This document shows, piece by piece, positions 9,376 through 33,549 of a DNA stretch of 64,000 nt (positions are counted from its first letter, which is position 1; each line of letters opens with the position of its first letter). The notes under the pieces were generated by a model, which was not told the origin of the DNA, made no database searches, and saw only the letters and a list, made by a program, of their open reading frames with translations. Source of the stretch: Akkermansiaceae bacterium (GTDB taxonomy: Bacteria; Verrucomicrobiota; Verrucomicrobiia; Verrucomicrobiales; Akkermansiaceae). The translations under genes and the position numbers were made by a program. The DNA is taken from positions 8,455 to 72,454 of the forward strand of contig JANYFB010000273.1 of NCBI GenBank assembly GCA_025362955.1, in the 5' to 3' direction.

Positions 9376-9400
9376 CTGATAGCAAAATTCTTTTTCCCGA

Positions 9401-9794: not shown

Positions 9795-9836
9795 ATGGAC
9801 TGCGGAATTTGTCCGCCTCCGCCCTGACCGCCAAAT

Positions 9837-15729: not shown

Positions 15730-18240
15730 TTAGATTCTCCGCATGGCGATGCCGCTGATGAGGAAGGCGAATCCTGCATAGACGAACCAGTGCGCGATGT
15801 CCTGATAGACGGCGGAAGATGGGAGATCGGCCCTTACTTTTTCGGGATCGAAATGGGCCATAACTGCGAGCGCGGCGTCTGGCTCGCGGTCGAGGCGATA
15901 TTCCGCAGGATAGTCGCGCTGCCAGCCGAGTGTTTTCATCAACGAGTGATCGGTATCTCGCAGACTGAGATTCACGCGGTCACGGCCTATCAGATTAACA
16001 GATGCCTCGTAGCGACCCACGCCGGTCTGACGAATGCTAACAGGTAAATCCGCTCCGTTTCCGTCGATGGCCTTAGCATCCCATTTCACACGATCCACGG
16101 GGCGGTCCTGTTCGTCACGGCGTGTGATGTCCACGATCCAGCGTTCGCGATCCACCGAGCCAGCGGCTGATAGACCGGTGGATTGTTCCTTGCGGACGAT
16201 TCCCCGAAAGATCTGCGCCCAGAATGCGCCGCCATTTCCCCAGCCGAGCCATTCACCGCCCCATTTCTCGGTGAGATCGGAGGTCCAGCAGAGGCCAGTG
16301 CCGAGGCCGTAGTGGCAAATGGCTAACAAGGGATCGCCGGTTTCCGCTGCGAGTAACAGATTGGCGGTTGGCTTGGTCTGGGTCATGACATAGCCGAGGA
16401 CGTAAGGAAGCTGAGCCTTCCCGTAACCTGATAGAATCGGATGATCACCCGTGACAACTGTGGCGTAGAGGTCTTCCTTAATCGCGGAGCGAGATGCCTG
16501 CATCGTTTCCTTGGTGAAAATCTGCGGCATGTTCGCTGGATCATCCGTCTCGTAATAGCGTCCACCGCCTTCCTGAGCAATCAACTGCATCACGCCCTTG
16601 GCCGCGCCCGCGCCGAGGCAGACGCTGGAAACCGTCATCCCTTGCGCCCGCATGTCGCGGGTCAGGCCGGCGAAGTCGTTATCCGGCGTCTCACCGTCTG
16701 ATAGCACAATCATGTGCTTCACCTTGGCCACGGCGTTTTGCAACAGCTCACGACCCTTGACCATGCCCGGATAAGCATCGGTGCCGCCGTCGGCTTGTAG
16801 GGAGTCGATGGCATTCATGACCGTCCCGCGATCTGCGGCGCTGGTCATGTTAAGAATGACGCGAGTCTCGCTGTCGAAGCCGACGACCGCGATCTGGTCC
16901 TGCGCGCCTAACAATTCAGCTGCCGCTTTGGCGGAGGCACGGGCGAGAGCGATCCGCTCGCCATCCATCGAGCCGCTCTTGTCGATGACTAACACCATCG
17001 CCAAACTCGGTTTCTGCTTTTCCTTTTCATAGCGCGAAGTAAGCGGGAGTGCCTCCTCGACCGGAGTGCGGAAATAGCCGCCGAGGCCGAACGAATTTTC
17101 CGAACCCAGCATTGCAAGCCCACCGCCGAAGTCGGAAACGTAACGCCGCAGTAGTTCCATCTGGCGCACGCTCATGGAGGTGGCGGGCACGTCTGCTAGA
17201 ATCACGGCATCGAAGGCGAGCAGCTCCGCCATCGTGTCTGGCAAGCCGCGTTCGCCGCGCAGTTCGAGTTCGAGCCCTTGTTTTTTCAGGGCGCGTGCCA
17301 AGGGGCGGAGTTGTTTCTCGTCGCGATGAAGTGCTAACAGCCGCGGCTCACCTTTGACCGTGATGGTGGTGGCGACCTTGTTATTGATCGGAAACCAGTC
17401 TTTCTCCGGAAGTAGCTCGGCCTCCCAACGGCTCTCGCCAGCTGCGGTCATTTCCACATCGAGCGTGACGGAGGTTTCCTTGCCCGCTTCGAGTTTCAAG
17501 GGTGCCGAGGCCACCGCCACACCTCCGTGGAGAATCCGGGCGGTGGCATTCATCGCTTCGTTCGCCCGCATCCGCAGGCGCATTCGGACGATTTCACCGC
17601 GATAGGCGACGCGGGCTAACGGCTCTAACGCGACCAGCGCGGCTTCGGGCCGACGCAGACCTTCCATCGGCCGGAAACGAAGATCCACGCCTTCCTCATG
17701 GAGGGTTTTGATCGCCGCCTGGACGCCGGGTGTGGTCGGACAGCCATCGGAAAAAACCACCAGCCTGCGAGCCATCCCGGCATCGAAAGCGAGCCGCGAG
17801 CCTAACAGAGCTTCAGCTAATTTCGTCGAATCCCTCGCCGAGGCATCCGCCGTACCCGCCGTTGCTTCATCGGCCAGCTTGCGAAGACTTTTCGAGTCCG
17901 CCGTAGCCAAGCGGGTGCCAAACGCCAATAACGACGAACGATCCGAACTATGGAGCATGGATGATGCCTTTTCGATTTCCGTCACCGCGCCGCGGATCGC
18001 GTCGGGATCGACAGACTCCGAGACGTCAACCAGATAGACAACATGCAGGCGGTCACTTTTTGAAAGCCAATACGGCCTGCACAATGCGAGAATCAAACAC
18101 ACCGCGCCGAGCAAGCGAAGACTGTGAGCCAGCCACTTGCGGGCGGGCGGACGATCCACAAGGGAGCGCCGCCAGACGTACACGCTGGCGATGGCGCAGG
18201 CGACTAACAGCCAAAGGGGAAGGAAGGTGGAAAACTGCAT
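15730..18240 (-). CDS. multi-domain vWA / glutamine-amidotransferase-like membrane protein (Bat-operon type)
   Basis: 836 aa. N-terminal TM helices are followed by vWA MIDAS-like VVYLVDVSESVD and a GATase1-like block (FDAVILADVP...LRRYVSDFGGGLAMLG). A second vWA domain reads MVLVIDKSGSMDG...ADGGTDAYPG...MIVLSDGET. A C-terminal TM helix is present. Confidence 0.8.
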   Translation of the reverse strand: MQFSTFLPLWLLVACAIASVYVWRRSLVDRPPARKWLAHSLRLLGAVCLILALCRPYWLSKSDRLHVVYLVDVSESVDPDAIRGAVTEIEKASSMLHSSDRSSLLAFGTRLATADSKSLRKLADEATAGTADASARDSTKLAEALLGSRLAFDAGMARRLVVFSDGCPTTPGVQAAIKTLHEEGVDLRFRPMEGLRRPEAALVALEPLARVAYRGEIVRMRLRMRANEAMNATARILHGGVAVASAPLKLEAGKETSVTLDVEMTAAGESRWEAELLPEKDWFPINNKVATTITVKGEPRLLALHRDEKQLRPLARALKKQGLELELRGERGLPDTMAELLAFDAVILADVPATSMSVRQMELLRRYVSDFGGGLAMLGSENSFGLGGYFRTPVEEALPLTSRYEKEKQKPSLAMVLVIDKSGSMDGERIALARASAKAAAELLGAQDQIAVVGFDSETRVILNMTSAADRGTVMNAIDSLQADGGTDAYPGMVKGRELLQNAVAKVKHMIVLSDGETPDNDFAGLTRDMRAQGMTVSSVCLGAGAAKGVMQLIAQEGGGRYYETDDPANMPQIFTKETMQASRSAIKEDLYATVVTGDHPILSGYGKAQLPYVLGYVMTQTKPTANLLLAAETGDPLLAICHYGLGTGLCWTSDLTEKWGGEWLGWGNGGAFWAQIFRGIVRKEQSTGLSAAGSVDRERWIVDITRRDEQDRPVDRVKWDAKAIDGNGADLPVSIRQTGVGRYEASVNLIGRDRVNLSLRDTDHSLMKTLGWQRDYPAEYRLDREPDAALAVMAHFDPEKVRADLPSSAVYQDIAHWFVYAGFAFLISGIAMRRI

Positions 18241-18252
18241 GGAGATTGGGAA

Positions 18253-20016
18253 TCAGCCAACTTTGCGGCGGTGATAGAGAATTTCCTCAACGAAGAGGGC
18301 GACCAGCGCGGCGAGCAGAAACCAAGCAGCCAGCGGCCAACCTGAGGCGAGCTTCACTTGTGGCGGAGTGACACCGCCAGCGGCTGGACCGGATTCACCG
18401 GCGGACAAAACCGCGCCTCCGAGCTGCCAGTTCGTCGAGTTTCGTGAAAACCCATAATTGCCGATGCGGTCGATAGTGACGGGCGTTTGCAGCGGTAGCG
18501 GGCCAACTTTTTCGCCTTGGCGGAGGGTTGCCGCACTGAGTGCCTCGGTGCCGGGGACTTCCACCAAACTGCCGGTTGCGACTGCCGATGGAAAGGTGTT
18601 GTCTCTACCTGTTAGGAGAACCGCCGCATCGTGGACCAACACCGGGAACCAAGGTGACAGAAAGAAGTCCTCGCGCGACGGATCGAAATTCATCACCACG
18701 GCACGACGGCCGTTCACCGAACAGGTGTAGAGCAAGGGCGTGCCATCGGCATGGGCTAGAACGATGACAGCACCGGGCGGAGGTGTTAGCTTCCTCGCCC
18801 CATCGAAGGTGAGTAACGCGGGATCAATGCGGGCGATCAGCGCGTGTTCCTTGGCGACCACTTCGGGAGCACCCGGCGACAATTCCGCGCCGAGCTTGTT
18901 CCAAAATGGCGACTCGCCAGAGGGCGCGAAGACGATCGTGGTTTCCGTATCCGGCGGCGAACCTTCCGCAAGTGAAAGCCTGCCAAAGCCATCGATCTGC
19001 TCGAACAACGAGTCCGCCCGACTGAAGGCGGAGATGCATTGTTGGAAGAAAAACGGATTTTTCGCGGCCACTTGCACGGGAATCGGCTGGGGTGCGTTGA
19101 AGCCTAACGGTACGATGTCATCGCTTGCCAGAGCATCCGATCCGCGCAAGCGCAGCAGCCAAGCGCCGGGTGCGATGCCATCCAGCGGGATCGACTCACT
19201 CGCCTCGCCGCGGGCGGGTAAATGCATGGAAAATAAGCGCGCCAGCTTGCCGGAGTCTGCCGTCACTAACTCCAGTTCCACCTCCCGTGCTTCGGGAAAA
19301 TCCGACACCAGCGAGACGAACAAGGAGGCGCGGCCCGGACCATCCCAGTGCAAGTCAGCCGCCGTGATTCCCGCGTTGCCCGCCTGACCGCCTAGGGTGA
19401 CGACTTCCACACCGGGAGGGATTTCCAGCGCTGCGGAATGCATATCAGTTAGAAGCAGTATCCTTGTTTTCGCAGTGTTCCCCGTGGCTGTTAGTAAGGC
19501 GAGTTCGTCGAGTGCATGGGGATCGAGGGATAAGTCCGTGGCGGTGACGCCATCGAGCGCGTCACGCAACAACCTCGCATGGTTCGTTAGATTCGCACGG
19601 TATTCAATTTTTCCCGCCACCGTCGCAATGGCTGCCCGCTGCGAGCCGCCTAGCGCCGAGATCCATGAATCCGCCAATTCCTTGGCGCGGGTGAGACGTG
19701 ATTTCCCTTCGTCGATGCCGTTCATTGATACTGAGCGGTCGATGACAATAAGCAGATCTGGAGCCTTGCCGTCACCGATGCGTGGCTTGGTTAGAGCAAA
19801 TACCGCTGCGCTGAAGCCGAGCGCGACTAACAGCAGTGAAAGCAGATTCCGCAGTCGTTGGAAGAGCGAGTTCGATGCCTTTTGTTTAAAAACCTGCTGC
19901 CAGAGGAAAAACGCATTCACCGACTGGCGGCGCGGGCGGATCTTGATGAAATAAACCGCAGCAAGTGGCAGCAGTGCCAGGGAAGCCCAGAAAAACGCGG
20001 GAAAACCAAAGGTCAT
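18253..20016 (-). CDS. BatA-N (aerotolerance regulator N-terminal) domain / vWA-like membrane protein
   Basis: The preferred start MTFGFPAFFWASLALLPLAAVYFIKIRPRRQ is a BatA_N-type motif. Its ATG overlaps the DUF58 stop as ATGA (plus strand tcat at 20013..20016). Also present are vWA-like LLIVIDRSVSMNG and a C-terminal TM helix. Confidence 0.75.
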   Translation of the reverse strand: MTFGFPAFFWASLALLPLAAVYFIKIRPRRQSVNAFFLWQQVFKQKASNSLFQRLRNLLSLLLVALGFSAAVFALTKPRIGDGKAPDLLIVIDRSVSMNGIDEGKSRLTRAKELADSWISALGGSQRAAIATVAGKIEYRANLTNHARLLRDALDGVTATDLSLDPHALDELALLTATGNTAKTRILLLTDMHSAALEIPPGVEVVTLGGQAGNAGITAADLHWDGPGRASLFVSLVSDFPEAREVELELVTADSGKLARLFSMHLPARGEASESIPLDGIAPGAWLLRLRGSDALASDDIVPLGFNAPQPIPVQVAAKNPFFFQQCISAFSRADSLFEQIDGFGRLSLAEGSPPDTETTIVFAPSGESPFWNKLGAELSPGAPEVVAKEHALIARIDPALLTFDGARKLTPPPGAVIVLAHADGTPLLYTCSVNGRRAVVMNFDPSREDFFLSPWFPVLVHDAAVLLTGRDNTFPSAVATGSLVEVPGTEALSAATLRQGEKVGPLPLQTPVTIDRIGNYGFSRNSTNWQLGGAVLSAGESGPAAGGVTPPQVKLASGWPLAAWFLLAALVALFVEEILYHRRKVG

Positions 20017-20885
20017 GCGACGAGTCCTCCCTTTCTCAACATCGACTGGATGACGACCTCGAAGGGCACGTCCGAAGTCGTGCTGGCGAGACCCACGCCA
20101 CGGCGCGCACACTCGACCCGCAGGCCTTCATTCCATGTCGCGACGGCCTCCCGATAGATGCGGGCTTCCTTTTCCGTGATCGTCACCCGTTGGCGGGCGG
20201 ACGTTTCCACGCACTCGATTTCAAGGTCGCCGAGCCAAGGACATTCGAGGTCCGACGGGGCATTGACTTGAAGGGCGAAAACATCGTGGCCGGACCATTG
20301 CAGGAAGCGCAAACCTTCCTCAAAGCCTTTAGGGAAAAAGAAATCCGAGATCACTAACACCACACCCTTTTTGCGATGTTGCGCTTGGAAGAAACGCGCA
20401 CAGGCGGTAAAATCGCTGTCAGTGCCAGACGTTTCCGCGCCGTCAAGATCGCGGAGGAATGGGAAAACTTTTCCCCTGCCTCGAGCACTATCGACGATAG
20501 TGCCTAACCGTTCCGTGATGCCATGAACGACGACGCGATCCATTCCGTTAAGCGCGATGTAGCCAAGCGCGGCGGCGAGCCTGCGGGCATAGTCGAACTT
20601 GGGGGCCATCGAGCGGCTGCAATCTAAGAGGATATAGACGGTGGTATCTTCTTCCACCTCGAACAACTTGATGAGTAGTTCCTCGGTCCGGGCGTAGATT
20701 TTCCAATCAATCGCGCGGTAGTCATCCCCGAAACTGTAAGGCGCGTAATCGGCGAAGGTGATGCCGGTGCCACGCCGCTGGGTGCGCCGATCCGCTTGCA
20801 ACGAGCCGCGCAGGACGCGGCGGGCCAGCAAATTCAGGGCATCTAGCTGCTTGATGAAAGCGGGATCGGTGAGGGAGGTTTTCAT
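20013..20885 (-). CDS. DUF58 domain protein
   Basis: GDDYRAIDWKIYARTEELLIKLFEVEEDTTVYILLDCSRSM is the canonical DUF58 core. There is a 4-bp overlap with moxR upstream and with the BatA-N gene downstream. Confidence 0.85.
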   Translation of the reverse strand: MKTSLTDPAFIKQLDALNLLARRVLRGSLQADRRTQRRGTGITFADYAPYSFGDDYRAIDWKIYARTEELLIKLFEVEEDTTVYILLDCSRSMAPKFDYARRLAAALGYIALNGMDRVVVHGITERLGTIVDSARGRGKVFPFLRDLDGAETSGTDSDFTACARFFQAQHRKKGVVLVISDFFFPKGFEEGLRFLQWSGHDVFALQVNAPSDLECPWLGDLEIECVETSARQRVTITEKEARIYREAVATWNEGLRVECARRGVGLASTTSDVPFEVVIQSMLRKGGLVA

Positions 20886-21862
20886 GCCTTCGCCGCCTTA
20901 ACCGCGTCATCGACTAACATATCCGGCTTGATCCCTTCCGCCTCACCCTCGAACGAAAGGATCAGGCGATGGCGTAGCGCGGGGAGGGCGACGGAATCCA
21001 CATCTTCACGGGAAACATGGAAGCGACCATCTAGCAAAGCACGGGCTCGGGCAGCGGCGAGCATCGCCTGACCCGCACGCGGCGAGGCTCCGTGGCGAAC
21101 GAATTGTTTCACCGACTTTGCCGCATTTTCGTTAGGATGTGTACCCCGGACAACCCGGACGAGATAGTCCTGCACTTCCGGCGCGACAGGCACTTCCCGC
21201 AGCGTCTCGCCCATGCGGATGATGTCCGCGCCGTGGGCGACCGGGCTGACGTGTGGGCGGGAATTTCCGCCGGTGCGGTCAAGAATTTGTTTGAACTCAT
21301 CGTGCGATGGCAGGCAGACTTGGAGCTTGAAAAAGAAGCGGTCAAGCTGGGCTTCCGGCAGCGGATAAGTCCCGTCATTCTCGATGGGATTCTGCGTGGC
21401 CATGACGAAAAACGGCAGTGGCAGAGGGTGCGTGTGGTTCGCGACGGTCACGCGCTTTTCCTGCATCGTCTCTAACAAAGCAGACTGGGTTTTAGGAGTG
21501 GCGCGGTTGATTTCGTCAGCTAACAGCATGTTGCAGAACACCGGGCCAGGTTGGAATTCCAACTCCCGGCGGCCATCCCGATCCATCAGGATCTGGGTGC
21601 CGACGACATCGCTCGGCAGCAAGTCCGGGGTGAACTGGATGCGCTTGAATTGCACGTCGATAGCCTGTGCCATCGTATTGACCAGCGAGGTTTTCCCAAG
21701 ACCCGGCACGCCTTCTAGCAGAACATGGCCACCACAACAGATAGCGATGAGGACATCATCAATGATTTCCTGCTGGCCCACGATGAACGTGGAGACGGCG
21801 GTGCGAATGCGGTCGAAGGTATCTTTGAAATGGGCGATGTTAGGTTCGTTAGCAGTTGTCAT
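20882..21862 (-). CDS. MoxR-family AAA+ ATPase
   Basis: 326 aa with Walker A LLEGVPGLGKT, Walker B LLADEINRATPKTQSALLE, and VMATQNP...PLPEAQLDRF typical of MoxR (AAA_3). Confidence 0.95.
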   Translation of the reverse strand: MTTANEPNIAHFKDTFDRIRTAVSTFIVGQQEIIDDVLIAICCGGHVLLEGVPGLGKTSLVNTMAQAIDVQFKRIQFTPDLLPSDVVGTQILMDRDGRRELEFQPGPVFCNMLLADEINRATPKTQSALLETMQEKRVTVANHTHPLPLPFFVMATQNPIENDGTYPLPEAQLDRFFFKLQVCLPSHDEFKQILDRTGGNSRPHVSPVAHGADIIRMGETLREVPVAPEVQDYLVRVVRGTHPNENAAKSVKQFVRHGASPRAGQAMLAAARARALLDGRFHVSREDVDSVALPALRHRLILSFEGEAEGIKPDMLVDDAVKAAKA

Positions 21863-21895
21863 TTGGGAAGAGCAGGATGGTTGATAGAAAAAAGG

Positions 21896-23590
21896 TTATT
21901 TGCCCGAGGCTGGTGCGGGTGCGGCAGATTGCAGATTTTCAAAATAGTTACGGACGCCCAGTTTTAAGGATTCCGGGACATCGTCGCGCTGGACAAAGGA
22001 TTCCACTTGGCGGGCGAATTCGCGTTGTTTCGCCTCGCCATGGCGACCGGAAACACCGGTGCCACTCTCAGCCTCCTCGACGGCACTAAGCGATGGACCG
22101 GAGCCGTGCTGGCCTTGGAGCTGGGTGAGAGCGCCGTTTTTTTGAGAATCATCGTGCTCTTTCCGCTCGCTCCATGACGAGCCAGTGCCAGGTTTTTGTC
22201 CACCGGGTGACTGACCCATGGCAAGCGAGTCCGACTGGCCTTGGGAAAATGATTGGGCTTGGCCAAGCGCTTGTCGGAGTTGGTCGAGTTTGCTTTTTGC
22301 CATGCGCTTGCCGTGCATCCCGCGCATGTGTTTTCCGAGCTTGTCTAGGGCTCCGTTTGCGCGGGCCATCGCGTCTCCCTCACCGTCGTCAGGTTCCGCA
22401 TCCGGGTCCATTTCCATTTCATCCAACTCCTTTTCCGCATGGGCGGCGGCATCATCGAGTTCTGCCATTCGGTCTTCGAGCGGCTTGGCTTGTTCGCCCG
22501 CGCCTTCGGTCATCTGGCCGTTTTCCGAGCCTTCGCCCTGTCCTTGGCTGCCAGCGCCATTTCCTGCCTGCGCTTGGCGTGCACCTTGACGTTGTTTACC
22601 CGCAGCCGCCAGGCGTTTGCTGGCGGCCCGCATTTTCGCAAGCTCTTGTTTTGCTTCGTCGATTGCTTTTTGTTTTCCGGCACGGTCGGCTTTTTTCAAA
22701 TCTTTCGCATCGAACTTTTTCGCCGCGAGTTTTTCTAACATTTCGGCAGCTTCCTTCAATTCCTTGGCATCCAGTTTTTTACCGAGCTGGCGGGCTTCGG
22801 TTTCCTCGGCCTTGGCCAGTTCACCGGCGGCGAGCTTGAGCGTTTCCTCGTCGCGTTGTTGATCGAGCGCGTGGCTGGCATCGCGGATTTTCTGCTCGAT
22901 GCGGGCGAACTCGCGGGCGGCTTCGGCACGGTTTCCGGTTTCGTCGATGGATTTTACAAGCTTGCGGAATTCATCCAGCTTCATGCCTTCCTTCTCCTCC
23001 GGCGCGACGATGTCCTGTTCGAGGGCTTCGATGAATTGCTCCAACTGTTTCTTTGACTCGCCGACGCGGAGCTTGGTTTCACTGGCGATTTTCTCCTCAG
23101 CTCTAACCGATTGCGATGGTGGTAGCAGGCCAAGAACCATCGCGCATAAGGTAAGTGCCACGGCTAACAGAGCGGGGCGGTTGGGGAATTTTTCGGAAAT
23201 AGTCTCAACCTTGCATGACTCCAACCGCGGCTCCAACCACTTCCATTGGAGCGCGGTGGCGGGGTCGTCCGGGTGACACATGGCCAGGTGGCGGGCAGTG
23301 GCGATGCCGTCCTTCAAATGGAAAAACCGATCCGCTTCACGCGCGGCAGCGTTTGGACACATGCGTTTCCGGCACCACCAACCACCGCAACCCACCCCGC
23401 CAAGGATCACGATGGCTAACAGCAATATTTTGGGGACTGAATGACCGCGCAGCACCCAGAACAAAGACGCAATGATCGCCAAGGCAGACGTGTAAACAAG
23501 CGTTCCAATCACCACCCGGCGGGCAAGGAATCCGTCGTGACGACGGGCCACCCGATGGATCAGCGATTCAATTTCAGATCGTACAGACAT
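21896..23590 (-). CDS. membrane-anchored coiled-coil protein of unknown function (operon partner of MoxR/DUF58)
   Basis: 564 aa with 2-3 N-terminal TM helices. These are followed by long K/E/A/Q-rich heptad-like segments, a G/Q/S-rich acidic region, and a conserved-looking tail VPESLKLGVRNYFENLQ. It begins 7 bp after the giant gene. Confidence 0.6.
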   Translation of the reverse strand: MSVRSEIESLIHRVARRHDGFLARRVVIGTLVYTSALAIIASLFWVLRGHSVPKILLLAIVILGGVGCGGWWCRKRMCPNAAAREADRFFHLKDGIATARHLAMCHPDDPATALQWKWLEPRLESCKVETISEKFPNRPALLAVALTLCAMVLGLLPPSQSVRAEEKIASETKLRVGESKKQLEQFIEALEQDIVAPEEKEGMKLDEFRKLVKSIDETGNRAEAAREFARIEQKIRDASHALDQQRDEETLKLAAGELAKAEETEARQLGKKLDAKELKEAAEMLEKLAAKKFDAKDLKKADRAGKQKAIDEAKQELAKMRAASKRLAAAGKQRQGARQAQAGNGAGSQGQGEGSENGQMTEGAGEQAKPLEDRMAELDDAAAHAEKELDEMEMDPDAEPDDGEGDAMARANGALDKLGKHMRGMHGKRMAKSKLDQLRQALGQAQSFSQGQSDSLAMGQSPGGQKPGTGSSWSERKEHDDSQKNGALTQLQGQHGSGPSLSAVEEAESGTGVSGRHGEAKQREFARQVESFVQRDDVPESLKLGVRNYFENLQSAAPAPASGK

Positions 23591-23597
23591 GGCTTGG

Positions 23598-26500
23598 TTA
23601 AGGTTGCTCGGGAGTAGTTAGACTTTTCCCGAGTTTCACGTATTTTTCTTTCTGAGGCTTACCCACCTGGTTCGGCGGGATGGAGGCGTAAATGGATTTG
23701 GCCTCGTCGAGCTGCTTGTTTTCAAACAAGGACTGCGCGAGATCGTATTGAATCATCGCCCGGAGTTCATTGCGCTCAGGACCCGGCTGGCATTCCGCCA
23801 GCGCTGCGCGGTATGCCTCAATGGCCGGTTGGTATTCTTTCCTCATATGGAAATGGTCGCCACGATAATCCATCAACTGAGCGCGGACTTCAGGGATGAA
23901 AGCCGCAGGCATTGGCGAAGTGATCACCATAAAATCATCGCCCACCGGGCCTGCTGCCATCTGATAGGTCCACGCGTTTTGAGGTGGGAACAATGGTGCA
24001 AGGAATGGCTGGGAAAATAGCGCGGTGAAAAACTTCCGGCGGACCTCAGTGAAAGCGGGCGATTTCCATAAATTGTTCCGTGCCGTGCTTTCTACAAATG
24101 AGGCCGAACATTTCTCCACAGGCAACGTTTTATCAAGATCGTTGTGGGTTTTCATGCGGGAGAGAACGTTCTTGAAACGTTCCGGCTGGCCGATCCAGTG
24201 GGCGAGAAACTGGCAGAGCCGGAGAGATGTCGTCATGTCGTTAGAATCAATTTCCGACCGCCCGTCACAACTGACGGCGAGATCCTCGAAGCATTTCAGG
24301 GATTTCTCAAACCCGGCCATTTCGCCCTTACTGATGGCATTGCAAATGGAGATGGAGGAAGAGTTAAATACATCGCGTAGGCTGTTCCTCACTGCGTAGG
24401 AATTATCATTGCTCTCAGACGATGGAGGTGCTGCGACCAGGGCCGATGTCATTTTTTCCAGCAGTCCAGTGTCACCTAACACCATCTTTGCGAATGCGGC
24501 GCGGCGGTAAATAAGGCAATCCGTCTTCGCTATCAGAAATCTCGGATTCATGTCGGTAGGTGCTCCAACCCCCGCTGTCCAATCTTTCAGTGAAGTCTCG
24601 TAGTTCGTGCCTTCAGCGTAAGCGGCGAGTTCATCACGCAGTTCGAGAAGTTCGAGGTAGTTTGTCGCCGTGATGGTATTCAGCATTTCCATCTGAAGTA
24701 GCCGATTCTTGGGCGGATCTTTCTTGTAAGCGGCGGCAAGACGCGTGCTGCGATCCTCGGATTTTTGACGCGGCGCCAGGTCGCCCTCAGCGGCTTTGAT
24801 TTGGAGGAGTTGGCACTCGAGGCGCATCACTTGAATCGGGTCCACACCGGACTTGGTGAACGCATCGAGCTTTTCCTCAAGTGTGCGGCTGTAAACGATA
24901 GCGGAGTTCGGGTTTCGATAAGTGCATCCCAATTCAGGCATGAGCGATTTAGCGAGATCGAATTGGTCAGTGGAGATCAGGGCGATGAACGTCGCCAGAT
25001 CACCCGTAATGGATTGCTTCACTTGGCCTAACAGTTTTTTGACCATTGCATCGTCACCCACCCGGGCGGATGCGATGAAGAATGTGGTGGCCATGGTCGC
25101 GGGGAGGGACGGATGCCCGCCTGCTTTGGGGCTGTTCGCATTTTTCCAAAACGCGTCATTCATACGCCGGGCGAGCGGCTTCGTTTCTGGCCCGAATTCA
25201 ACCGTGGAAATGGCTTTGATTACGGCCATGCCTAATGGATTCACGGCACTGCGAGGTGCCTCGCAGTAGGATTCGTAGAGTAGGGCGATGACCGCGGTGA
25301 TGCCAGAATCGGTGAGGATACCCGGCGTATGGGACACACAGTTGAATGCGAACTGCATCCGCGATGTTTCTGCCCGGGACTTATCTCCGATGATGGAGAC
25401 GAGCAATGCGGATGTGGCCGTGTGGTTCTCTGCCTTGTCCGTAGCCCAACCGGACAAGCCGAGGGTTAGATCGCGATAGGAGAGGCCTTTCAATAACGCA
25501 TCGGAGTCCTTACCGCCCTTTTTGATTAGCTCGTCACGGGTGGTTTGGACAATCTTCCGTTCGCGGGTCGTGTAGGCAGCGCCGGATGAACTGTTATTAT
25601 TCATTTCATAAGTGGTGAGGGCGAGGAGGGCATCGCTGCGGATGTCCTCCGGCATTTCCATGGCGGGCCTCAGACTTCTCAGCCAGTCAGGTTCATTCGA
25701 TGAATTCCCGCGATCCCACCTTGTAAAAGTGGCGCCCATTCTGAATAGCAGTGACTGCCCGTTGTAACTATTATCCGCTAGGCTGAGTCGAGCACCTTCG
25801 GGACTTTTTACGACTGCGGCGATGAACCGGAATGCCAGTGGCTGGTTCTGATAGAATGGAGAGTCCGAGTTATTTAGAAGGCTTATGATCGATTCGTCCC
25901 GCTCGGTGATTTGAAGATCGTTAGAAGTGTAGGAGGAGAGCCGCCCGCCTTGGGTGAGGCTCGTGGTGAAACGGCGCTCGGCCTCAAGGAATAGATCCAC
26001 GGATTTTTGGAAATCCAGAGGCGCTATTTCTGCTAGAATCTGCCTGATTTCACCGAATGGACTACTATAATTGACCTGGCGTTGTTTATTAGATAAAAAT
26101 TCATCAGCACGTTTCACCATCTCTTTGCGGCGGACTTCCTCGGTGGCCTTGGCCTTGTCACGGAAAACGGGTGGCAGCTTGGCTATGGCCTCTGCAGGGA
26201 GCCATGGCAGCAGCAGAGAAAATCCCTCGATACGGGAAGCGGGAAGTTTCGCTAGGGCCGGACCCGCATTTGCGAAGGCTGCGGCGGTGAGATCTGAACG
26301 TTCTTTCCCGGAAGATAGCGCGGCAGCGCTGATGAGATAGCCGAACGTGGATGGCTTGTGATCGCTCAGGCGTTTGACCAGATCGCTGCGGGAGAACGAT
26401 GTGTTCATGTAAGACATCATGCGCTCATTCAGCAACTTCGGCTGGCGGATATAGGTCATCTTTCCACCTACCTGCTGCACCTCCACAAGAATGGCGGCGT

Positions 26501-29500
26501 AAGGTTCCCAGTTCGAGATATCGGATAGCCAGCCGAGCGACTCGAACAAAGCCTCCACTTCCTCCGGCTTCTGATAGTTGTGATTTCGAAACGAACGGAA
26601 CAATTCATACTCGTTATTTCCCACAGGAATCCCGAGGCGGAACAAGGTGCGGTGGAGCCGGATCGCATCTGGAGGATTGAGAGATTGCTGGCGGAGGAAG
26701 CTCTCGATGACATTGATCTGCTGATAGAGGAGCTGTTTGCCATCTTTGCTTTCCCAGTCGATTTTCTCGCCAAAGACCGCTTTTGAGATCGCGACGCAGA
26801 TGGCGTCAAGGTCTTCTTGGCTACCGGCGACACCAGCAGTTAGAGCGGCGCTGAGCAAACTGATGTCCGACCCTGGATTTCCATTAGACATACCGTTTAC
26901 CAATTTCCCCGGTGGAGTTTCGCGGATACGGTCGAGAAAAAACCTGGACGCGCCGGGCACCGTTCCCGCGCGCGTTAGCACTCCCTGGCGCAACATGACA
27001 CTCACCCTGTCATTGCCACTTTTCAGGCTATCAGAATCCCACAGCTTACTGAGCTGTTCGATGGTGGAGATGTTTGCCATCGCGGAAACGAGTCCGCCTA
27101 CCTTGGGATTGCGTTCGACCAACTCTTTCAGATAAGCAGGTGGCAGAATTTCATTTGGAGTTTTTGCCTTCGCTAGCCGAGCTGTTAGCCAACCGACGGA
27201 TGAATAGGAACCCAGATCGTCTCCACTGCTGCTGGAACCGCCATTGCCAAGGATGAGGGTGAAGAATGATTGGTTTGAGTACTGGGTCTGTGCGGTTTCG
27301 ATTTTCGCCACTGCGAGAGCTTCGCGGGCTTTTGCATCCAGTTCTTCGGGAGTGGTTTTCCAAGCCTTCGCTCCCGAATACAGCCTGAAGCCCTCCTCAC
27401 TGAGGGTGGGATAACGGAGCATCGCAAGTGCCAGGCGTCTCGCAATCGCGAGACGCCGGTTCGCAGTCTCTTGGTCCTTCACCTTTTCCTTGGACTCAGA
27501 GAAAAGGTCCGGTAGCGCGTTGGTATTCTGGGTGCTGTAGAACTCTTTCGCAAGATAGGCTGCCCATGATAGATTCGCCTTCGCGAGATCCTCCGGGGTA
27601 GCGCTCTCGAGCCATCCGGTGACTGTTTCAAAATACTCAAGGGTTTCCTTATTATCCTCGCGGTTAGAAAGTGCCTGGCCTCTTTCATACGCAAGCATGA
27701 CAAAATCCTCGGAAGCGGCAGATCGCGACATGAGCTTCTTCACCCGGCCACGCTGCGCTGAGGGTAGTAGGAATGCCATTTTCGCAGCGACGGATGCATC
27801 ATCAGGGCGCTCCACGATGAGCAATTCCAGAGTGGCAAGCGCCTGCTCGTTTTTTCCTACCGCAGTACAAATATCGGCGTATTCCAAGCGTTTTGTTAGG
27901 CTTTTTGATTCGCCGGGATCGGTAATTTTAACGAGTTCCTTGCGGACATCCTCGCTGAGTTTGGTAAGCAGTTCGCGGATTTCATAGCTACTATTACCAC
28001 GATTCGATTTCGCTTGGCGGAAGATCAAAAGCGCCTCACGCGCGGCGGCATCATACTTTTTCTCGGAGGAAAGTTTGATGACTCTTTCCATCGTGCCGTT
28101 TGTGCGGGAGGAAGAAGATGACGAGCTGCTGGAGGCTTGCCCAAAACCCGCTGGGCCGAGCGGAGAGCCACCTGTCTTGGAAATTGCGGGTGCTTGGAAT
28201 CGTTTCGCGAGATCCTCGAAGCCGAGTTCCGTGGCTTTCGCGGCTAATACCGGAGCCCCTTGTAATCCTAACACCTGACGGCACTGGACCAGCACTGTTC
28301 TTAGGGAATCTGCGATTTTTGCACGTTCCTCCGGCTTCATTTCACTAGCTAGTGCGATCAATGTCGTGTTGAGCCAAGTCGTATAATTCTGGTCCGATGC
28401 GCGGGCGGCACGAGATTGGTCTAACAACGAATAGGCCTCGCTGAATTTCTTACCCTGCACCGCCTGATAGGTCCGCAGCAGCGCGAAATCTCCAGCTTCT
28501 TCTTTCGGCGGAGTGACAGAGAGTAATTTTGCGGCTGCGGCTTGATCCCCGGCTCGGAGCATGACCCAGGCGCGCAGGACCGGCGACTCGATACGATCTA
28601 AATATGTCCTCAAGTCTTTCGGGTCGATGCCACCATAGCCGCCATTACCCTGCGTCTCAGAGGCCGGACGAATCTGATAGAGGTAGATGGAGGGAAGTGA
28701 AGTGTAGGATAGATTTTCAAATGTGGGTAATGCGAATGGCGTTTCACCGTTCATCCATGGATTGTAGCCGCGCATCCGCCCATAGGACATTCTGGCTTGT
28801 AACTGTGATGACATACCGGAAGCGCCGTTTGGTTGCTTTCGGAAACGTTTCACCATGCTATTGAGTGCATCAATCCACTGTTCACGGGTGCCTGCCACGG
28901 CAAGTCCGTATAGCCGGAACTGATCGAGCTTTTCATCATCTACCGGAGCTTTCGCGATGAGTTCCAAGACGATTTTTTTCAATGCCTCCCGCTGTGTTTC
29001 AGGCATGGCGCTCTTCTCATCGGCAATGATCTGGACCAGTTGGTAGGCGGTCTTCATCACCATATCGGAATCCTTGGATTCCAAGCATTGTCCAGCAGCA
29101 GTGAGGATCTGTGCCCACGTTGGATCATCGGCTTTTGCGTCCTTCGCGAGGATAACCGCAGCTTGGAAGCGGGTAAGCGGTGAGAGATGCGGCTGTTTTT
29201 CCAACGCCATTTTCAGAAGCGCCACATTTATCCCTGATCCGCTAGAATTATAGCTGTTATACATCATGACCATGCCTAGCAACCCAGGTTCTTCCGGGTG
29301 GGCCTGCAATAACTTCGGGAAATCTGGTTGACCAGCACCGCTAGAGTCCACGAAATCTGCCATGAATGCGGCGTTCGTCACGCCTGCCGCCCGGATCTGC
29401 GCTTGAATCTGAGTGCCGCCATCGCCGCTTTTTTTCGCGAGTTTGCAAATATGGACCATCGCCATCCGGTGAACTTCTTCCGTGTCTTGTGGCAGTGCGA

Positions 29501-32453
29501 ACGGCCCGGTCATCGTCGCACCGGGATAGCGATACGATTGCTGCTGATTTTGATGGGCGTAAGCGGTCTGCACCGAACTCATGAGAGTTAGCAGAGTGCG
29601 GACGTCCTCGGGATAGTTCTTGATGTAGTTTCTCTGATTTTGCGGATTGACCGGAATTCCAGTTAGGTCTCCGTTCGCTTGTTGTAGTGCGAGGAAAATA
29701 GGCAGCGCCTCGGCCTCGCGGCCATCCTGCTCCAACATCACCGCTAACAGGTAGCGGCAACGCCAATCCCCGCCATCCGGTAAGGATTCGCGGAGGTAGC
29801 GAATCGCCTCCTCATACATTCCGGCTCCCGCGAGAGTGGCCGCGCTGCTCTCGATAGAGCGTGGATCGTTCGCCTGTTTTCCAGACATCGCTTGCAGTTC
29901 GCGCATCCCTTTCAAAGTCTGACCTTGGCGCAAATACGCCTGCGCCAAAGCTCCACGGACACGATTCGTCGTGTCCTGTGCAAGTGCCTCCTCTAACACC
30001 GCCACCACCCGATCCGGGTTCCCGCTTTGTTCTTCAAGATTGGCGATTTGTAAGCGCAGATCAATGTCCTTTGGCTGAAGGCGCACCGCTTCTAACAATA
30101 AGTCACGCCGTTTGTCCTCATTCTGTGTGACCCGCGCCAGTTCGGCCTGCGCGAGAATTGGTCCGATAGAACGACGGTTGCCACGAGCGCGCTCCTGCAG
30201 TTTTTCAGCCAGTTCCTCGACCTTTCCATTTCGCATCGAGAGTTGTGCCAATTGCGCTGCCCACCGCGCCTGATCCGCCGGACTTTGCGACTCGTCGTAC
30301 AAGCGCCAATAAATCGCCTCCGCATCCGCCCACTGCCCGGATTCCTCGTGCAGCGACGCGAGATTTGCCGCCAAATCCGTATCCCCCTCGAAACGCGCCA
30401 CCGCCTGCCGCGTCATTTTTACCGCCTCCTCCGGCTTGCCACTCTCTCGCAGCAACCGGCTGCCTGCGATCCATGCCGCCTTATCGCCCGGCGCACTTTG
30501 TTTCCAACGCTCCACCGTGGCGAGCGCATCTGCGGTCTTTCCTGCTCGCTGTTGGAGTTCGGACAGGTCTTTGAAAAACGCCGCTTTCCTCCCCTCCTCG
30601 GTATCTGCGAGATGGGAAAGTGCTCCGATTGCTTGGTCAAACTCTCCTCGCCGATCTAGCAGCGCAGCGTAAAAATGCAACACCAGCGGGTCTGTCGCGC
30701 GGTCTAGCAGTTTCGCTACCGCATCGAAGTCCCCCTGTCCCTCCATCAACTCCGCTAACAGGCATGTTTCCGCAGCCGTTCGCGTCGCCTGGGCATCCAG
30801 TGTGGTCCGCCATTCCAGCACCTTGTCCGCAGCCACCAGCACGCGATTCGCCAGGCCGATGTGCTCGGCGATTTCCGCCGTCTGTTTCGATAGCCGCACC
30901 AGCTTGACTGCTTGCGAAACGGCATCTACCGCCTTGTTCGCTGCCAGAGCGGTCTGGGCCACTGCTGCTAGATAACGTGGCTCTGAGGAAAATTTATCCG
31001 CCTTCGCCGTTAGAATCTCGAACGCCACACCACTCTCGCCTAGCGCGGAAATCGAGCTTGCTACTCTAAGCACCACTTCCACTTCGTCCGCCCCACCGGC
31101 TTTTTTCAGCAACTCCAATGCCTCCGCTTTATGGTTCGTTTTACCGTATTGCGCGGCTAATGCTTCCGCTGGTGCCGGTCCCGCCCCTTTCGCGACAGCG
31201 AGTTCTCTCAGCAGCGCTTCACCCGGTTCGTTCTGGCTGTATTGAAACATCAAGCTCGCGATGCGGATGCCGTTACCCTCATCCTTGCCGAGAAGTTCGA
31301 GCGCTTTCTTTAGCGCCGCTAACACGGCGTCCGGCTTGCCTTGGCGACTGCGTAGTGCCGCCATCTGAAGTTGCAAGGCAGCCTCCGTCGGAGCCAGCTC
31401 GATCATTTTATCTAACTCTGCCGCCGCATCGTCGAAACGCTCGCCATCTGATAGAAGGCGCACGAATTCCTCGCGGAGTTCACGATCTCCCGGCGAACGC
31501 TTGAGCACTTCACGGAACCGCCCGACCGCTGAATCCGTCTCGCCCTGCGCTGCCTCTAACTTCGCAAGCTGGCGGTGGATCAGCAGCCGCCGAGGATTCG
31601 CTTCCGCCAGCTTTTTCAACTCTGCGGACAAATCTGCCAAGCGATCTTGCTTGCGGAAAACTTTCTCAATCTGCGCCAGCACCTCGATCTCTAACCACGA
31701 CCCCTCGCCGACTTGGGCCAGCGTGGCCGCGTAGGCTTCTGCCGCCTCGTCATTTTTGCCCGCCTGTGCCAGCAAATCCCCACGGCGCATGGCTCGCAGC
31801 GTTTTCTTGTAGGGATCCGCGCTCGCATCGATCAGCTTGGAAATGTAGGTTAAAGCCTGCGCCGTCTCGCCATCTGCTGCGGCGGATTCCACCAGATCTT
31901 CCAGTAAATCCTCGTCGCCCGGATGCGCCGCGAGCAGCGCGTCCCAGGCCTTCACCGCTTCGTCGGACTTGCCTTCACGCAGCCAGGATTTCCCAACCAT
32001 TTTCGCCGCTTCCAGTGCAAGCGCCTCGTCCTTTCCCGCGACTACCTTGGCCAAATCCGCGCGCGCGGCCTCGAACTCCAAACGCCGCAAACGGATTTTC
32101 GCGCGCTCCATCGGCAATGCGGGATCATCCGCCACGGCATCAATCGCCTTCGCCAATGCTGCCAATGCATCATCTTCATGCCCACGCCGCAGCTCGTAAG
32201 TTGCCAGCACCGTCCACTCTTGCCCGCCATTCGCTTGTGCCTGTGCCTTCAGGAACGCATCCAGTGTCTCGATCGGTTGCTCGTCGATCCATGCGCCAAA
32301 AAAGCGGTCGAACAAGGCCGCATTATGAGGCCGCTTCAACAACACCTCGTGGTATTTCAAGGCCTTTTCCGGCGCTTCACCCGCCATGGCCAATGGAGCC
32401 ACCAGACAGGAAATCGAAATCATCAAGACAGGCAAGCCGGAGGGTTTGAACAT
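23598..32453 (-). CDS. giant secreted TPR / alpha-solenoid protein (2951 aa)
   Basis: Uninterrupted 8.86-kb ORF. Signal peptide MFKPSGLPVLMISISCLVAPLAMAGE. Residues ~30-900 are Ala-rich TPR-like repeats. Residues ~900-2900 are helical-looking with no motif I recognise, and include a poly-Ser run (9 x S, nt 28107..28133) and GGSSSSGDD. One more TPR-like unit sits at the extreme C-terminus. Confidence 0.85.
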   Translation of the reverse strand: MFKPSGLPVLMISISCLVAPLAMAGEAPEKALKYHEVLLKRPHNAALFDRFFGAWIDEQPIETLDAFLKAQAQANGGQEWTVLATYELRRGHEDDALAALAKAIDAVADDPALPMERAKIRLRRLEFEAARADLAKVVAGKDEALALEAAKMVGKSWLREGKSDEAVKAWDALLAAHPGDEDLLEDLVESAAADGETAQALTYISKLIDASADPYKKTLRAMRRGDLLAQAGKNDEAAEAYAATLAQVGEGSWLEIEVLAQIEKVFRKQDRLADLSAELKKLAEANPRRLLIHRQLAKLEAAQGETDSAVGRFREVLKRSPGDRELREEFVRLLSDGERFDDAAAELDKMIELAPTEAALQLQMAALRSRQGKPDAVLAALKKALELLGKDEGNGIRIASLMFQYSQNEPGEALLRELAVAKGAGPAPAEALAAQYGKTNHKAEALELLKKAGGADEVEVVLRVASSISALGESGVAFEILTAKADKFSSEPRYLAAVAQTALAANKAVDAVSQAVKLVRLSKQTAEIAEHIGLANRVLVAADKVLEWRTTLDAQATRTAAETCLLAELMEGQGDFDAVAKLLDRATDPLVLHFYAALLDRRGEFDQAIGALSHLADTEEGRKAAFFKDLSELQQRAGKTADALATVERWKQSAPGDKAAWIAGSRLLRESGKPEEAVKMTRQAVARFEGDTDLAANLASLHEESGQWADAEAIYWRLYDESQSPADQARWAAQLAQLSMRNGKVEELAEKLQERARGNRRSIGPILAQAELARVTQNEDKRRDLLLEAVRLQPKDIDLRLQIANLEEQSGNPDRVVAVLEEALAQDTTNRVRGALAQAYLRQGQTLKGMRELQAMSGKQANDPRSIESSAATLAGAGMYEEAIRYLRESLPDGGDWRCRYLLAVMLEQDGREAEALPIFLALQQANGDLTGIPVNPQNQRNYIKNYPEDVRTLLTLMSSVQTAYAHQNQQQSYRYPGATMTGPFALPQDTEEVHRMAMVHICKLAKKSGDGGTQIQAQIRAAGVTNAAFMADFVDSSGAGQPDFPKLLQAHPEEPGLLGMVMMYNSYNSSGSGINVALLKMALEKQPHLSPLTRFQAAVILAKDAKADDPTWAQILTAAGQCLESKDSDMVMKTAYQLVQIIADEKSAMPETQREALKKIVLELIAKAPVDDEKLDQFRLYGLAVAGTREQWIDALNSMVKRFRKQPNGASGMSSQLQARMSYGRMRGYNPWMNGETPFALPTFENLSYTSLPSIYLYQIRPASETQGNGGYGGIDPKDLRTYLDRIESPVLRAWVMLRAGDQAAAAKLLSVTPPKEEAGDFALLRTYQAVQGKKFSEAYSLLDQSRAARASDQNYTTWLNTTLIALASEMKPEERAKIADSLRTVLVQCRQVLGLQGAPVLAAKATELGFEDLAKRFQAPAISKTGGSPLGPAGFGQASSSSSSSSSRTNGTMERVIKLSSEKKYDAAAREALLIFRQAKSNRGNSSYEIRELLTKLSEDVRKELVKITDPGESKSLTKRLEYADICTAVGKNEQALATLELLIVERPDDASVAAKMAFLLPSAQRGRVKKLMSRSAASEDFVMLAYERGQALSNREDNKETLEYFETVTGWLESATPEDLAKANLSWAAYLAKEFYSTQNTNALPDLFSESKEKVKDQETANRRLAIARRLALAMLRYPTLSEEGFRLYSGAKAWKTTPEELDAKAREALAVAKIETAQTQYSNQSFFTLILGNGGSSSSGDDLGSYSSVGWLTARLAKAKTPNEILPPAYLKELVERNPKVGGLVSAMANISTIEQLSKLWDSDSLKSGNDRVSVMLRQGVLTRAGTVPGASRFFLDRIRETPPGKLVNGMSNGNPGSDISLLSAALTAGVAGSQEDLDAICVAISKAVFGEKIDWESKDGKQLLYQQINVIESFLRQQSLNPPDAIRLHRTLFRLGIPVGNNEYELFRSFRNHNYQKPEEVEALFESLGWLSDISNWEPYAAILVEVQQVGGKMTYIRQPKLLNERMMSYMNTSFSRSDLVKRLSDHKPSTFGYLISAAALSSGKERSDLTAAAFANAGPALAKLPASRIEGFSLLLPWLPAEAIAKLPPVFRDKAKATEEVRRKEMVKRADEFLSNKQRQVNYSSPFGEIRQILAEIAPLDFQKSVDLFLEAERRFTTSLTQGGRLSSYTSNDLQITERDESIISLLNNSDSPFYQNQPLAFRFIAAVVKSPEGARLSLADNSYNGQSLLFRMGATFTRWDRGNSSNEPDWLRSLRPAMEMPEDIRSDALLALTTYEMNNNSSSGAAYTTRERKIVQTTRDELIKKGGKDSDALLKGLSYRDLTLGLSGWATDKAENHTATSALLVSIIGDKSRAETSRMQFAFNCVSHTPGILTDSGITAVIALLYESYCEAPRSAVNPLGMAVIKAISTVEFGPETKPLARRMNDAFWKNANSPKAGGHPSLPATMATTFFIASARVGDDAMVKKLLGQVKQSITGDLATFIALISTDQFDLAKSLMPELGCTYRNPNSAIVYSRTLEEKLDAFTKSGVDPIQVMRLECQLLQIKAAEGDLAPRQKSEDRSTRLAAAYKKDPPKNRLLQMEMLNTITATNYLELLELRDELAAYAEGTNYETSLKDWTAGVGAPTDMNPRFLIAKTDCLIYRRAAFAKMVLGDTGLLEKMTSALVAAPPSSESNDNSYAVRNSLRDVFNSSSISICNAISKGEMAGFEKSLKCFEDLAVSCDGRSEIDSNDMTTSLRLCQFLAHWIGQPERFKNVLSRMKTHNDLDKTLPVEKCSASFVESTARNNLWKSPAFTEVRRKFFTALFSQPFLAPLFPPQNAWTYQMAAGPVGDDFMVITSPMPAAFIPEVRAQLMDYRGDHFHMRKEYQPAIEAYRAALAECQPGPERNELRAMIQYDLAQSLFENKQLDEAKSIYASIPPNQVGKPQKEKYVKLGKSLTTPEQP

Positions 32454-32596
32454 AGCGGTTAAAGTTGATAGACTTATTTCAAATTAAACAATGCCTGTCG
32501 CTCAAATTATCGTCACATCTTCGAACGAGGCTACTCTTACCAAGGCGGGTGCGGAACCATTTGCACCGTCCCCGCTCGCCATGTAAGAACTCCGGC

Positions 32597-33133: not shown

Positions 33134-33152
33134 GCGCGGGCGGGACAGTTTC

Positions 33153-33549
33153 GGCGTGCCGCTCCCCGGACGGTCGCAGTTTTCGCGCAAGCGGGAGCTG
33201 AGGAAAGTCCGGACACCACAGGGCAACGCGCCTCATGAAAGTGAGGGACGGGTAACGTGAGGAACCCGGACAGAAAGTGCAGCAGAAAGATACCGCCGAT
33301 GGCCCGCAAGGGCACAGGCAAGGGTGAAATGGTGGAGTAAGAGCCCACCGCGAATCCGGGTAACCGGACGGCACGGCAAACCTCGCGTGGTGCAAGACAG
33401 AACAGGGGAAGGGCTGCCCGCCCGTTCATCTCCGGGTATTAGTCGCATCCTGCGCAAGCAGGGCGCTCCGCCTCGGCGGGGTGAGAGAAATGGCCGTCCA
33501 GCCTCGCAAGAGGGGGACAGAATCCGGCTTACAGGGGAGCGGCACTCCT
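33153..33549 (+). ncRNA. rnpB: RNase P RNA, bacterial type A
   Basis: Conserved GAGGAAAGTCCGGAC (P4 5' strand), ACAGAAAGTGCAGCAGAAAGATACCGCC, GGAGTAAGAGCCCACCGC, and ACAGAATCCGGCTTA (P4 3' strand). P1 is formed by GTGCCGCTCCCC (33155..33166) pairing with GGGGAGCGGCAC (33534..33545). ORFs listed across this region are spurious. Confidence 0.9.

Follow-up and report, generated by a model that had tools for sequence, protein, structure and literature searches.

A conserved six-gene cassette in Verrucomicrobiota joins a MoxR–DUF58–VWA module to a predicted giant secreted solenoid and a membrane coiled-coil protein

In the genome of an Akkermansiaceae bacterium (Verrucomicrobiota; GenBank assembly GCA_025362955.1), we analysed a stretch of 64,000 nucleotides from contig JANYFB010000273.1 (positions 8,455 to 72,454 of the forward strand; hereafter the window, whose numbering is used throughout) with regard to a compact cassette of six open reading frames (ORFs), all on the minus strand between 15730 and 32453. 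In the order of transcription, they encode a giant protein of 2951 amino acids (aa) (23598-32453), a membrane coiled-coil protein of 564 aa that we call g2 (21896-23590), a MoxR-type AAA+ ATPase of 326 aa (20882-21862), a DUF58 protein of 290 aa (20013-20885), a BatA-type protein of 587 aa called g5 (18253-20016, ATG at 20016) and an 836-aa membrane protein with a domain of the von Willebrand factor A (VWA) type, called g6 (15730-18240). The gaps at the five junctions are 7, 33, -4, -4 and 12 bp, and both overlaps are of the ATGA type, in which the start codon of DUF58 overlaps the stop codon of MoxR and that of g5 the stop codon of DUF58. A preliminary description of this DNA, made from the sequence alone, had listed the same six ORFs with their coordinates, gaps and overlaps, and all of them were confirmed in the sequence. 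In a promoter and terminator scan no site fell inside any of the five junctions, including the short one between 23590 and 23598 where the preliminary description had considered a break of the unit; this is weak evidence, because the totals of the scan were not above those of shuffled sequence and Verrucomicrobiota promoters may deviate from the sigma-70 consensus. It is only from the spacing of the six genes that we infer their co-transcription.

The cassette is conserved as a unit in many other genomes. The conserved patterns of g2 alone retrieved 57 loci from the genome collection, when a g2 alignment (A1) was scanned against one genome per GTDB species; these loci were taken with 10-kb flanks, and their ORFs were called and compared by BLAST with the six window proteins. 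A giant-like ORF directly abuts g2 in 42 of the 45 species-representative loci that have at least 9 kb upstream of g2, so that g2 stands between the giant and MoxR there, though the giant-like ORF is split by frameshifts in three metagenome-assembled genomes. Wherever downstream sequence is present, MoxR, DUF58, g5 and g6 follow g2 in this order, and the order of the cassette holds even at g2 identities of 30-35%, as in records with the labels Haloferula, Opitutaceae, Verrucomicrobiaceae and Planctomycetota. The linked loci carry record labels including Luteolibacter, Haloferula, Akkermansiaceae, Verrucomicrobiaceae, Opitutaceae and, in two bins, Planctomycetota, the last of which may be a binning error. 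Moreover, four loci anchored on the giant (L001 from Luteolibacter sp. LG18, L061, L064 and L065) contain the full cassette among unrelated flanking genes, and the 4-bp overlap of DUF58 and g5 is found again in all four. Among the giant homologues with enough downstream sequence, none was without the module. The preliminary description had left room for the giant to be usually unlinked from MoxR, DUF58 and VWA genes in other genomes, but it was linked to them wherever this could be checked. It is evident that chance falls far short of explaining the six-gene arrangement, since it recurs in dozens of species with its genes in unchanged order. The core proteins are highly conserved and single copy, with identities of 84-95% for MoxR. 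A word-index search gave 90 homologues of g2, a further search with a g2 profile gave the same 90, and an exhaustive profile search gave 206 clusters at 50% identity with E<=1e-30. On the other hand, a metagenome scan with the giant alignment gave 6 loci only, which were mostly truncated.

The giant protein has a single hydrophobic segment in its 2951 aa, which is at the N-terminus and belongs to a predicted signal peptide (residues 1-24, ending in LAMA and followed by GE; 32382..32453). It comprises a short basic part, a hydrophobic part and an A-x-A-like site, and is located just before a conserved mature N-terminus (PEKALKYHE...). This stretch is present in 21 of the 22 aligned homologues, while the ORF of P0018, as called, starts downstream of it. 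The following region (residues 26-925; 29679..32378) is a tetratricopeptide repeat (TPR) domain. Pfam families matched in the giant are TPR families only, at residues ~70-920 and 2859-2930, and the scores within ~70-920 (TPR_19, 88.6 bits; TPR_14, 67.4; TPR_16, 60.0; and related families) place it in the TPR superfamily. In 23 homologues, mean pairwise identity is 71% with hundreds of invariant columns in residues 26-925 and 31-45% in the rest of the protein. The N-terminal domain is detected even in the most distant giants at 234-606 bits.

The remaining part of the giant (residues 926-2951; 23601..29678) appears to be a fast-evolving alpha-solenoid. Pfam gave no family for residues 920-2850 apart from a single weak TPR match around residue 1522, and the C-terminal ~2000 aa had no match in a sequence search of the PDB. 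AlphaFold2 models based on 22 homologues consist almost throughout of helical hairpins with two or three short beta-hairpins, and had a mean local confidence (pLDDT) of 86.3 and a predicted TM-score (pTM) of 0.70 for residues 1760-2951, and 78.5 and 0.50, respectively, for residues 900-1960. A Foldseek search of these models against the PDB retrieved only generic TPR/HEAT solenoids at TM-scores of 0.1-0.25 and ~10% identity, with Ski3, IFT-A, Ctr9, karyopherins, mTOR and CAND1 as the top matches. Because the models are confident and these matches are generic solenoids, the C-terminal ~2000 aa is, as modelled, a genuine folded solenoid outside any characterised family. The preliminary description could not assign about 2000 aa of the giant, and this is borne out by Pfam, the PDB sequence search and Foldseek alike.

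A search with residues 901-2951 retrieved 29 proteins, all from Luteolibacter-like Verrucomicrobiota and all 2921-2999 aa long except for three shorter entries (1821, 2001 and 2473 aa). With hidden Markov models of sub-regions, most distant giants were found to keep the N-terminal domain and regions 1451-1760 and 2301-2850, while those of L041, L049 and L055 keep fewer; full-length homology of the distant giants is therefore likely, as far as sub-region matches taken without their order along the protein can tell. Moreover, 38 intact giants are 2870-3063 aa long (median 2951, coefficient of variation 1.3%), though large parts of them are unalignable. No other feature of the locus is as unusual as this constancy of length despite divergence, and a near-constant length in a fast-diverging protein gives a hint of some constraint on dimensions in the cell envelope. 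The few invariant His and Cys residues are scattered, and no cofactor site is recognisable.

Two loci possess two tandem giants followed by g2 (L060, 10001-27581, 2931 and 2923 aa; L066, 10001-27663, 2947 and 2934 aa). Such tandem giants of ~2930 aa each, ~17.6 kb together, thus precede g2 in some Akkermansiaceae lineages. A tandem pair is also probable in L063 (10001-23587), and the 3' end of a second giant copy is seen in the g2-anchored loci L009, L010, L017, L019, L022, L023 and L025-L027. In L063, the giant is directly preceded on its own strand by genes resembling a type II secretion system or type IV pili (3759-9847; two MshEN+T2SSE ATPases, T2SSF and an N-methyl pseudopilin), and these were not seen upstream in the other loci examined.

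The second protein, g2, matched no family in Pfam or NCBIfam. Its order is a basic N-terminus, two transmembrane segments, a 65-aa loop, a third transmembrane segment, a stalk of ~400 aa and a C-terminal motif, where the hydrophobic segments are residues 26-44, 54-72 and 139-157 and the stalk is composed of charged coiled-coil and Gly/Gln-rich low-complexity sequence. The loop between the second and third segments (residues 73-138; 23177..23374) is predicted to be cytoplasmic by the positive-inside rule, which would put the stalk in the periplasm. In 21 sequences with identities down to 31%, A82, D87, F90, L92, K93, L114 and Q115 of this loop are invariant. The C-terminal motif (about residues 516-554; 21929..22045; R..F.RQ.ESFV.RDDVPE.LK.GVR.YFE) is the densest cluster of invariant columns in alignment A1. 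The tail VPESLKLGVRNYFENLQ, which had been pointed out in the preliminary description, is present and turned out to be the most conserved part of g2. Some homologues are named DUF4175 in UniRef, but we do not adopt this name: the window g2 had no match to Pfam DUF4175 at E<=10, and among the 62 families that 21 g2 members matched, DUF4175 was not one of the 25 shared most widely. The papers found to mention DUF4175 concern an unrelated division protein of Acinetobacter. Sequence searches of the PDB gave nothing useful for g2 or for g5.

The next two genes encode a predicted cytoplasmic pair. MoxR matches AAA_3 at 3e-63 (212 bits, cut-off 27) and AAA_lid_2 at 3e-18 (66 bits) in Pfam, and its closest solved structure is 2R44 (1e-78). 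The Walker A motif GVPGLGKT and the sequence LLADEINR, which we read as the Walker B position, are both conserved in at least 95% of 54 orthologues. With an AAA_3-type domain containing Walker A and B, a lid and an adjacent DUF58 gene, this MoxR belongs to the MRP subfamily. It has no signal peptide, none of the N-terminal hydrophobic stretches seen in other proteins and no real membrane segment, the hydropathy peak at 37-55 running into the Walker A loop. The DUF58 protein matches its Pfam family at 4e-35 (121.5 bits) with a weak additional VWA_2 match, and its metal ion-dependent adhesion site (MIDAS; D88-x-S-x-S) is conserved in at least 95% of 50 orthologues. It likewise has no hydrophobic segment and no signal peptide.

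The last two genes encode membrane VWA proteins. In g5, BatA_N (PF07584) covers residues 1-78 (5e-07, 30.4 bits, cut-off 25.9) and VWA_2 residues 88-192 (36.1 bits), and the MIDAS motif (D93-x-S-x-S; DRSVS at residue 93) is conserved in at least 95%. Its transmembrane segments are at 3-21, 58-76 and ~555-577, the loop at 24-57 is basic, and so is the conserved tail (..LY.RRK.G). This three-segment layout is that of BB0173, the BatA homologue of Borrelia, for which experiments placed the VWA domain on the periplasmic side (PMC5700661). In g6, Pfam detected VWA at residues 415-576 (2e-22) and GATase1_like (1e-17). The VWA domain is inserted within the GATase1-like fold, because the halves of this fold matched in the PDB (337-415 and 589-684) flank it. 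Two DxSxS MIDAS motifs at residues 72 and 420 are both conserved in at least 95%, and the layout is like that of g5, with transmembrane segments at 4-22, 36-54 and 815-833 and an RR tail. The identity of g6 is 70-93% in Luteolibacter-like genomes and ~50% in distant ones. The VWA domains of both proteins are predicted to be periplasmic, and the hydropathy and charge distribution agree with the experimental topology of BB0173. Thus, the domain calls of the preliminary description (AAA_3 MoxR, DUF58, BatA_N with VWA, VWA with GATase1-like, and TPR) all agree with Pfam.

The cassette resembles the Bat operon in its MRP-type MoxR, DUF58, BatA-type protein (g5, by its BatA_N and MIDAS VWA domains), further membrane VWA protein and TPR partners. 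TPR partners are already known in Bat-type clusters (BatC/BatE, BB0170/0171) and are thought to hold a periplasmic complex together (PMC3557215). On the other hand, the cassette differs from the Bat operons of Bacteroides, spirochaetes and Francisella in having no BatD, no SH3/BatE and a GATase1-like second VWA protein, and in the addition of g2. In the six proteins, BatD was not matched at E<=0.01, no SH3 domain was matched in Pfam, and TPR repeats were found only in the 2951-aa giant. The BatB model of NCBIfam matches g5 only, at 25 bits against a cut-off of 350, while g6 is a membrane VWA protein with the GATase1-like fold; the other NCBIfam matches were generic TPR, VWA and AAA+ ones, all below their cut-offs. 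Unlike in Bat, a lone secreted solenoid of ~2950 aa and fixed length serves as TPR partner, and it is tandem-duplicated in some lineages. What is new here is therefore the size and architecture of the giant together with g2, while the MoxR-DUF58-BatA-VWA core is known. The earlier view that the unit is distinct from a generic Bat operon holds for gene content and linkage, and the unit is apparently undescribed: our literature search on Luteolibacter or Haloferula together with MoxR, BatA, VWA or TPR found no description of it, and the cassette as a unit is not captured by Pfam, NCBIfam or PADLOC.

With regard to other systems, MxaRSACKL is similar in that MoxR, a DUF58/VWA protein and VWA proteins (MxaS, MxaC and MxaL) are clustered with a periplasmic target. 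Its client is a defined metalloenzyme that receives Ca2+, whereas the co-encoded periplasmic protein here is a repeat scaffold without recognisable active site. Similarly, the RL3499-RL3502 operon of Rhizobium leguminosarum includes an MRP-type MoxR tied to membrane integrity and morphology, and these envelope effects of RL3499 point to an envelope role for the module. To our knowledge, no giant TPR protein or g2-like gene is known in that operon. Ski3, the TPR subunits of IFT-A, Ctr9, karyopherins and the N-terminus of mTOR belong to the same fold class of stacked helical hairpins as the giant. This resemblance to eukaryotic TPR/HEAT scaffolds is one of fold class only and not homology, and the giant is a bacterial, exported protein that is longer than most of them. 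The MoxR-vWA-transglutaminase degradation system (Zhang and Aravind) was also considered and rejected, as it has different partners and none of the six proteins has a TGL domain. A link to the mucin-utilisation loci of Akkermansia was likewise dropped, since literature searches gave no support for it and no Akkermansia genome is among the 57 loci.

Taken together, we hold with moderate confidence that the six genes encode one envelope-associated machine, which would be a Verrucomicrobiota-specific elaboration of the Bat/Mxa-type MoxR–DUF58–VWA module, the giant being either its scaffold or its client. The core would be composed of the cytoplasmic MoxR AAA+ ATPase, DUF58 as a cytoplasmic VWA-like adaptor, and g5 and g6 in the inner membrane with their periplasmic MIDAS VWA domains, while g2 and the Sec-exported alpha-solenoid of ~2950 aa would be lineage-specific parts added to it. 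The conserved N-terminal TPR domain of the giant may dock on the periplasmic parts of g2, g5 and g6, for which the g2 tail and the MIDAS sites are candidate contacts, and the long, fast-evolving solenoid of fixed length would serve as a scaffold or be the client of the module. ATP hydrolysis by MoxR and DUF58 could be passed across the membrane via the cytoplasmic loops of g2, g5 and g6, and a periplasmic complex would finally be assembled or remodelled. All these physical contacts and topologies are as we infer them, and so are the direction of the energy coupling and its purpose. Related modules offer precedents for an action on targets in the periplasm or envelope: insertion of Ca2+ into periplasmic methanol dehydrogenase depends on MxaR, S, A, C, K and L together (PMC12276312), and for the Bat proteins, assembly into a periplasmic complex by way of VWA and TPR domains has been proposed (PMC3557215). 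Among MRP-type MoxR proteins, RL3499 has effects on the integrity of the membrane and on cell morphology, and one of Francisella on stress tolerance (PMC3893208).

Several points weigh against this machine. As predicted from their sequences, MoxR and DUF58 cannot contact the exported giant directly. Because they have neither membrane segment nor signal peptide and the giant is exported, coupling would have to occur through membrane proteins or before export, and g2, g5 and g6 are the only possible link between the ATPase pair and the giant once these are apart. Thus, with regard to the model in the preliminary description that the MoxR/vWA machinery remodels the giant, the conserved linkage speaks for it, while direct chaperoning is not compatible with the predicted localisation. 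The topologies themselves come from hydropathy and the positive-inside rule, and the ORF lengths were counted from the first possible start codon and are possibly a few residues too long. TPR solenoids are generic interaction modules, whose fold says little on function. Moreover, the aerotolerance or oxidative-stress phenotype of the Bat operon is disputed in other bacteria, and Leptospira biflexa deleted for bat genes showed no phenotype (PMC3557215). Finally, the parts of the cassette are separable, because there are exceptions to the linkage: L047 (Phragmitibacter sp., OZ260079.1; 9917-17915) has g2-MoxR-DUF58-g5-g6 without adjacent giant, L042 and L052 have g2-like genes alone, and L032 (3580-9867) has a giant of 2095 aa that is without the region ~2300-2951 but is still directly before g2.

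These exceptions bear on the possibility that the giant is adjacent but functionally independent, its linkage reflecting the shared ancestral gene order of one clade. L047 with its five-gene module fits this idea, and all the evidence for the association is genomic. We regard it as very unlikely, because both flanks change from genome to genome while the order stays, also at g2 identities of 30-35%, which points to selection and is not expected otherwise. It is also conceivable, but fairly unlikely in our view, that the cassette is an ordinary Bat stress-tolerance operon in which the giant is an oversized equivalent of BatC/BatE and g2 an accessory, without any new function. In fact, MoxR, DUF58 and BatA_N with VWA are all present, and TPR proteins are standard in the Bat-like clusters of Bacteroides, Borrelia and Leptospira. 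Against it are the unmatched BatD and SH3, the BatB score far below its cut-off, and the GATase1-like fold with inserted VWA in g6. In addition, g2 has no counterpart among the described Bat components, and the giant is tightly conserved in length and presumably about ten times the size of BatC/BatE.

A metal-insertion module like MxaRSACKL would instead load a metal or cofactor into a periplasmic client, which may be the giant or an unlinked enzyme recruited by it. The only biochemically defined role of an MRP MoxR, DUF58 and membrane-VWA set is the insertion of Ca2+ into methanol dehydrogenase (PMC12276312), NorQ/NorD are a second example of metal insertion (PMC9976466), and all four MIDAS motifs are conserved in our cassette. 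However, no mxaF/mxaI-like metalloenzyme gene was found among the window ORFs scanned against Pfam, nor any dehydrogenase dependent on pyrroloquinoline quinone (PQQ) in the Pfam scans of 23 neighbouring ORFs. The flanks also vary between genomes, and the giant is a repeat solenoid with scattered invariant His and Cys residues and no recognisable cofactor site, so that we consider metal insertion unlikely. As for a MoxR-vWA conflict (defence) system as in multicellular prokaryotes, such systems reportedly join MoxR with vWA and repeat proteins (PMC7159879), and our MoxR also matches Pfam bpMoxR at 1e-12. This match is 48 bits against 212 bits for AAA_3, and PADLOC gave weak generic AAA+ matches to MoxR, none to the other five proteins and no system component. 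Moreover, the majority of the components sit in the membrane or are exported, the highly conserved core is single copy and placed among housekeeping genes, and Pfam detected no effector domain in the six proteins. We thus regard a role in defence as extremely unlikely.

Within the favoured reading of one envelope-associated machine, a more specific version is that the cassette builds a periplasmic superstructure peculiar to Verrucomicrobiota, in which the ~2950-aa solenoid of fixed length would be a molecular ruler or girder of the envelope and g2 a TolA-like stalk passing force across the membrane, powered by MoxR and DUF58 and not by the proton-motive force. We offer this as a speculation that is probably wrong in this form. 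If true, it would amount to a novel means of supplying the periplasm with energy, and the Bat/MoxR-MRP-VWA modules, which are widespread, would for the first time have a concrete mechanical role.

Clusters of MRP-type MoxR, DUF58 and VWA proteins of the Bat type are widespread, and their biochemical role is known only for methanol dehydrogenase maturation; otherwise the function of Bat-type clusters "remains elusive" (PMC3557215). In dozens of species-level genomes of Verrucomicrobiota, two dedicated partners encoded along with this module are permanently tied to it. The cassette thereby offers the module its first obvious candidate partner, a specific protein that may be its client or scaffold, and also a candidate for the link across the membrane. 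Because the cassette is present in cultured bacteria, namely Luteolibacter ambystomatis, Luteolibacter sp. LG18 and Haloferula chungangensis, its function is open to experiment.

Upstream of the giant gene, a divergent intergenic region of 143 bp (32454..32596) is the presumed promoter region of the unit, and the scan gave no sigma-70-like match on its minus strand. It is followed on the plus strand by a gene for a DUF456 membrane protein (32597-33133, likely ATG at 32597; Pfam 9e-33), which is divergent from the giant, and by a full-length bacterial RNase P RNA of class A (33158-33547; 197 bits). A minus-strand ORF of 316 aa (32479-33429), which ends 25 bp 5' of the giant, was considered as a gene of the operon and rejected as spurious; its GC content by codon position is atypical and non-coding-like, related loci contain no homologue of it, and both the DUF456 gene and the RNase P RNA gene overlap with it. 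Thus, the giant is the first gene of the unit. Another minus-strand ORF (33233-33682) is also spurious, as it overlaps the RNase P RNA. At the other end, only 12 bp separate g6 from a convergent ABC-permease gene. Housekeeping genes around the cassette include DHH/DHHA1, TruB and CNNM/CorC.

A DUF456 gene is present in L062, too, where it is located ~8 kb upstream of the giant. Elsewhere in the window, a 771-aa protein with multihaem cytochrome c motifs (Cytochrome_C7, paired CXXCH) and HEAT and TPR repeats is encoded at 10277-12592 on the minus strand. For a 649-aa ORF at 54163-56112 on the plus strand, Pfam gave no match at E<=1e-5. The minus strand also encodes a second VWA protein at 51258-53504, which is unlinked and of the YfbK type (vWF_A, VWA and YfbK_C).

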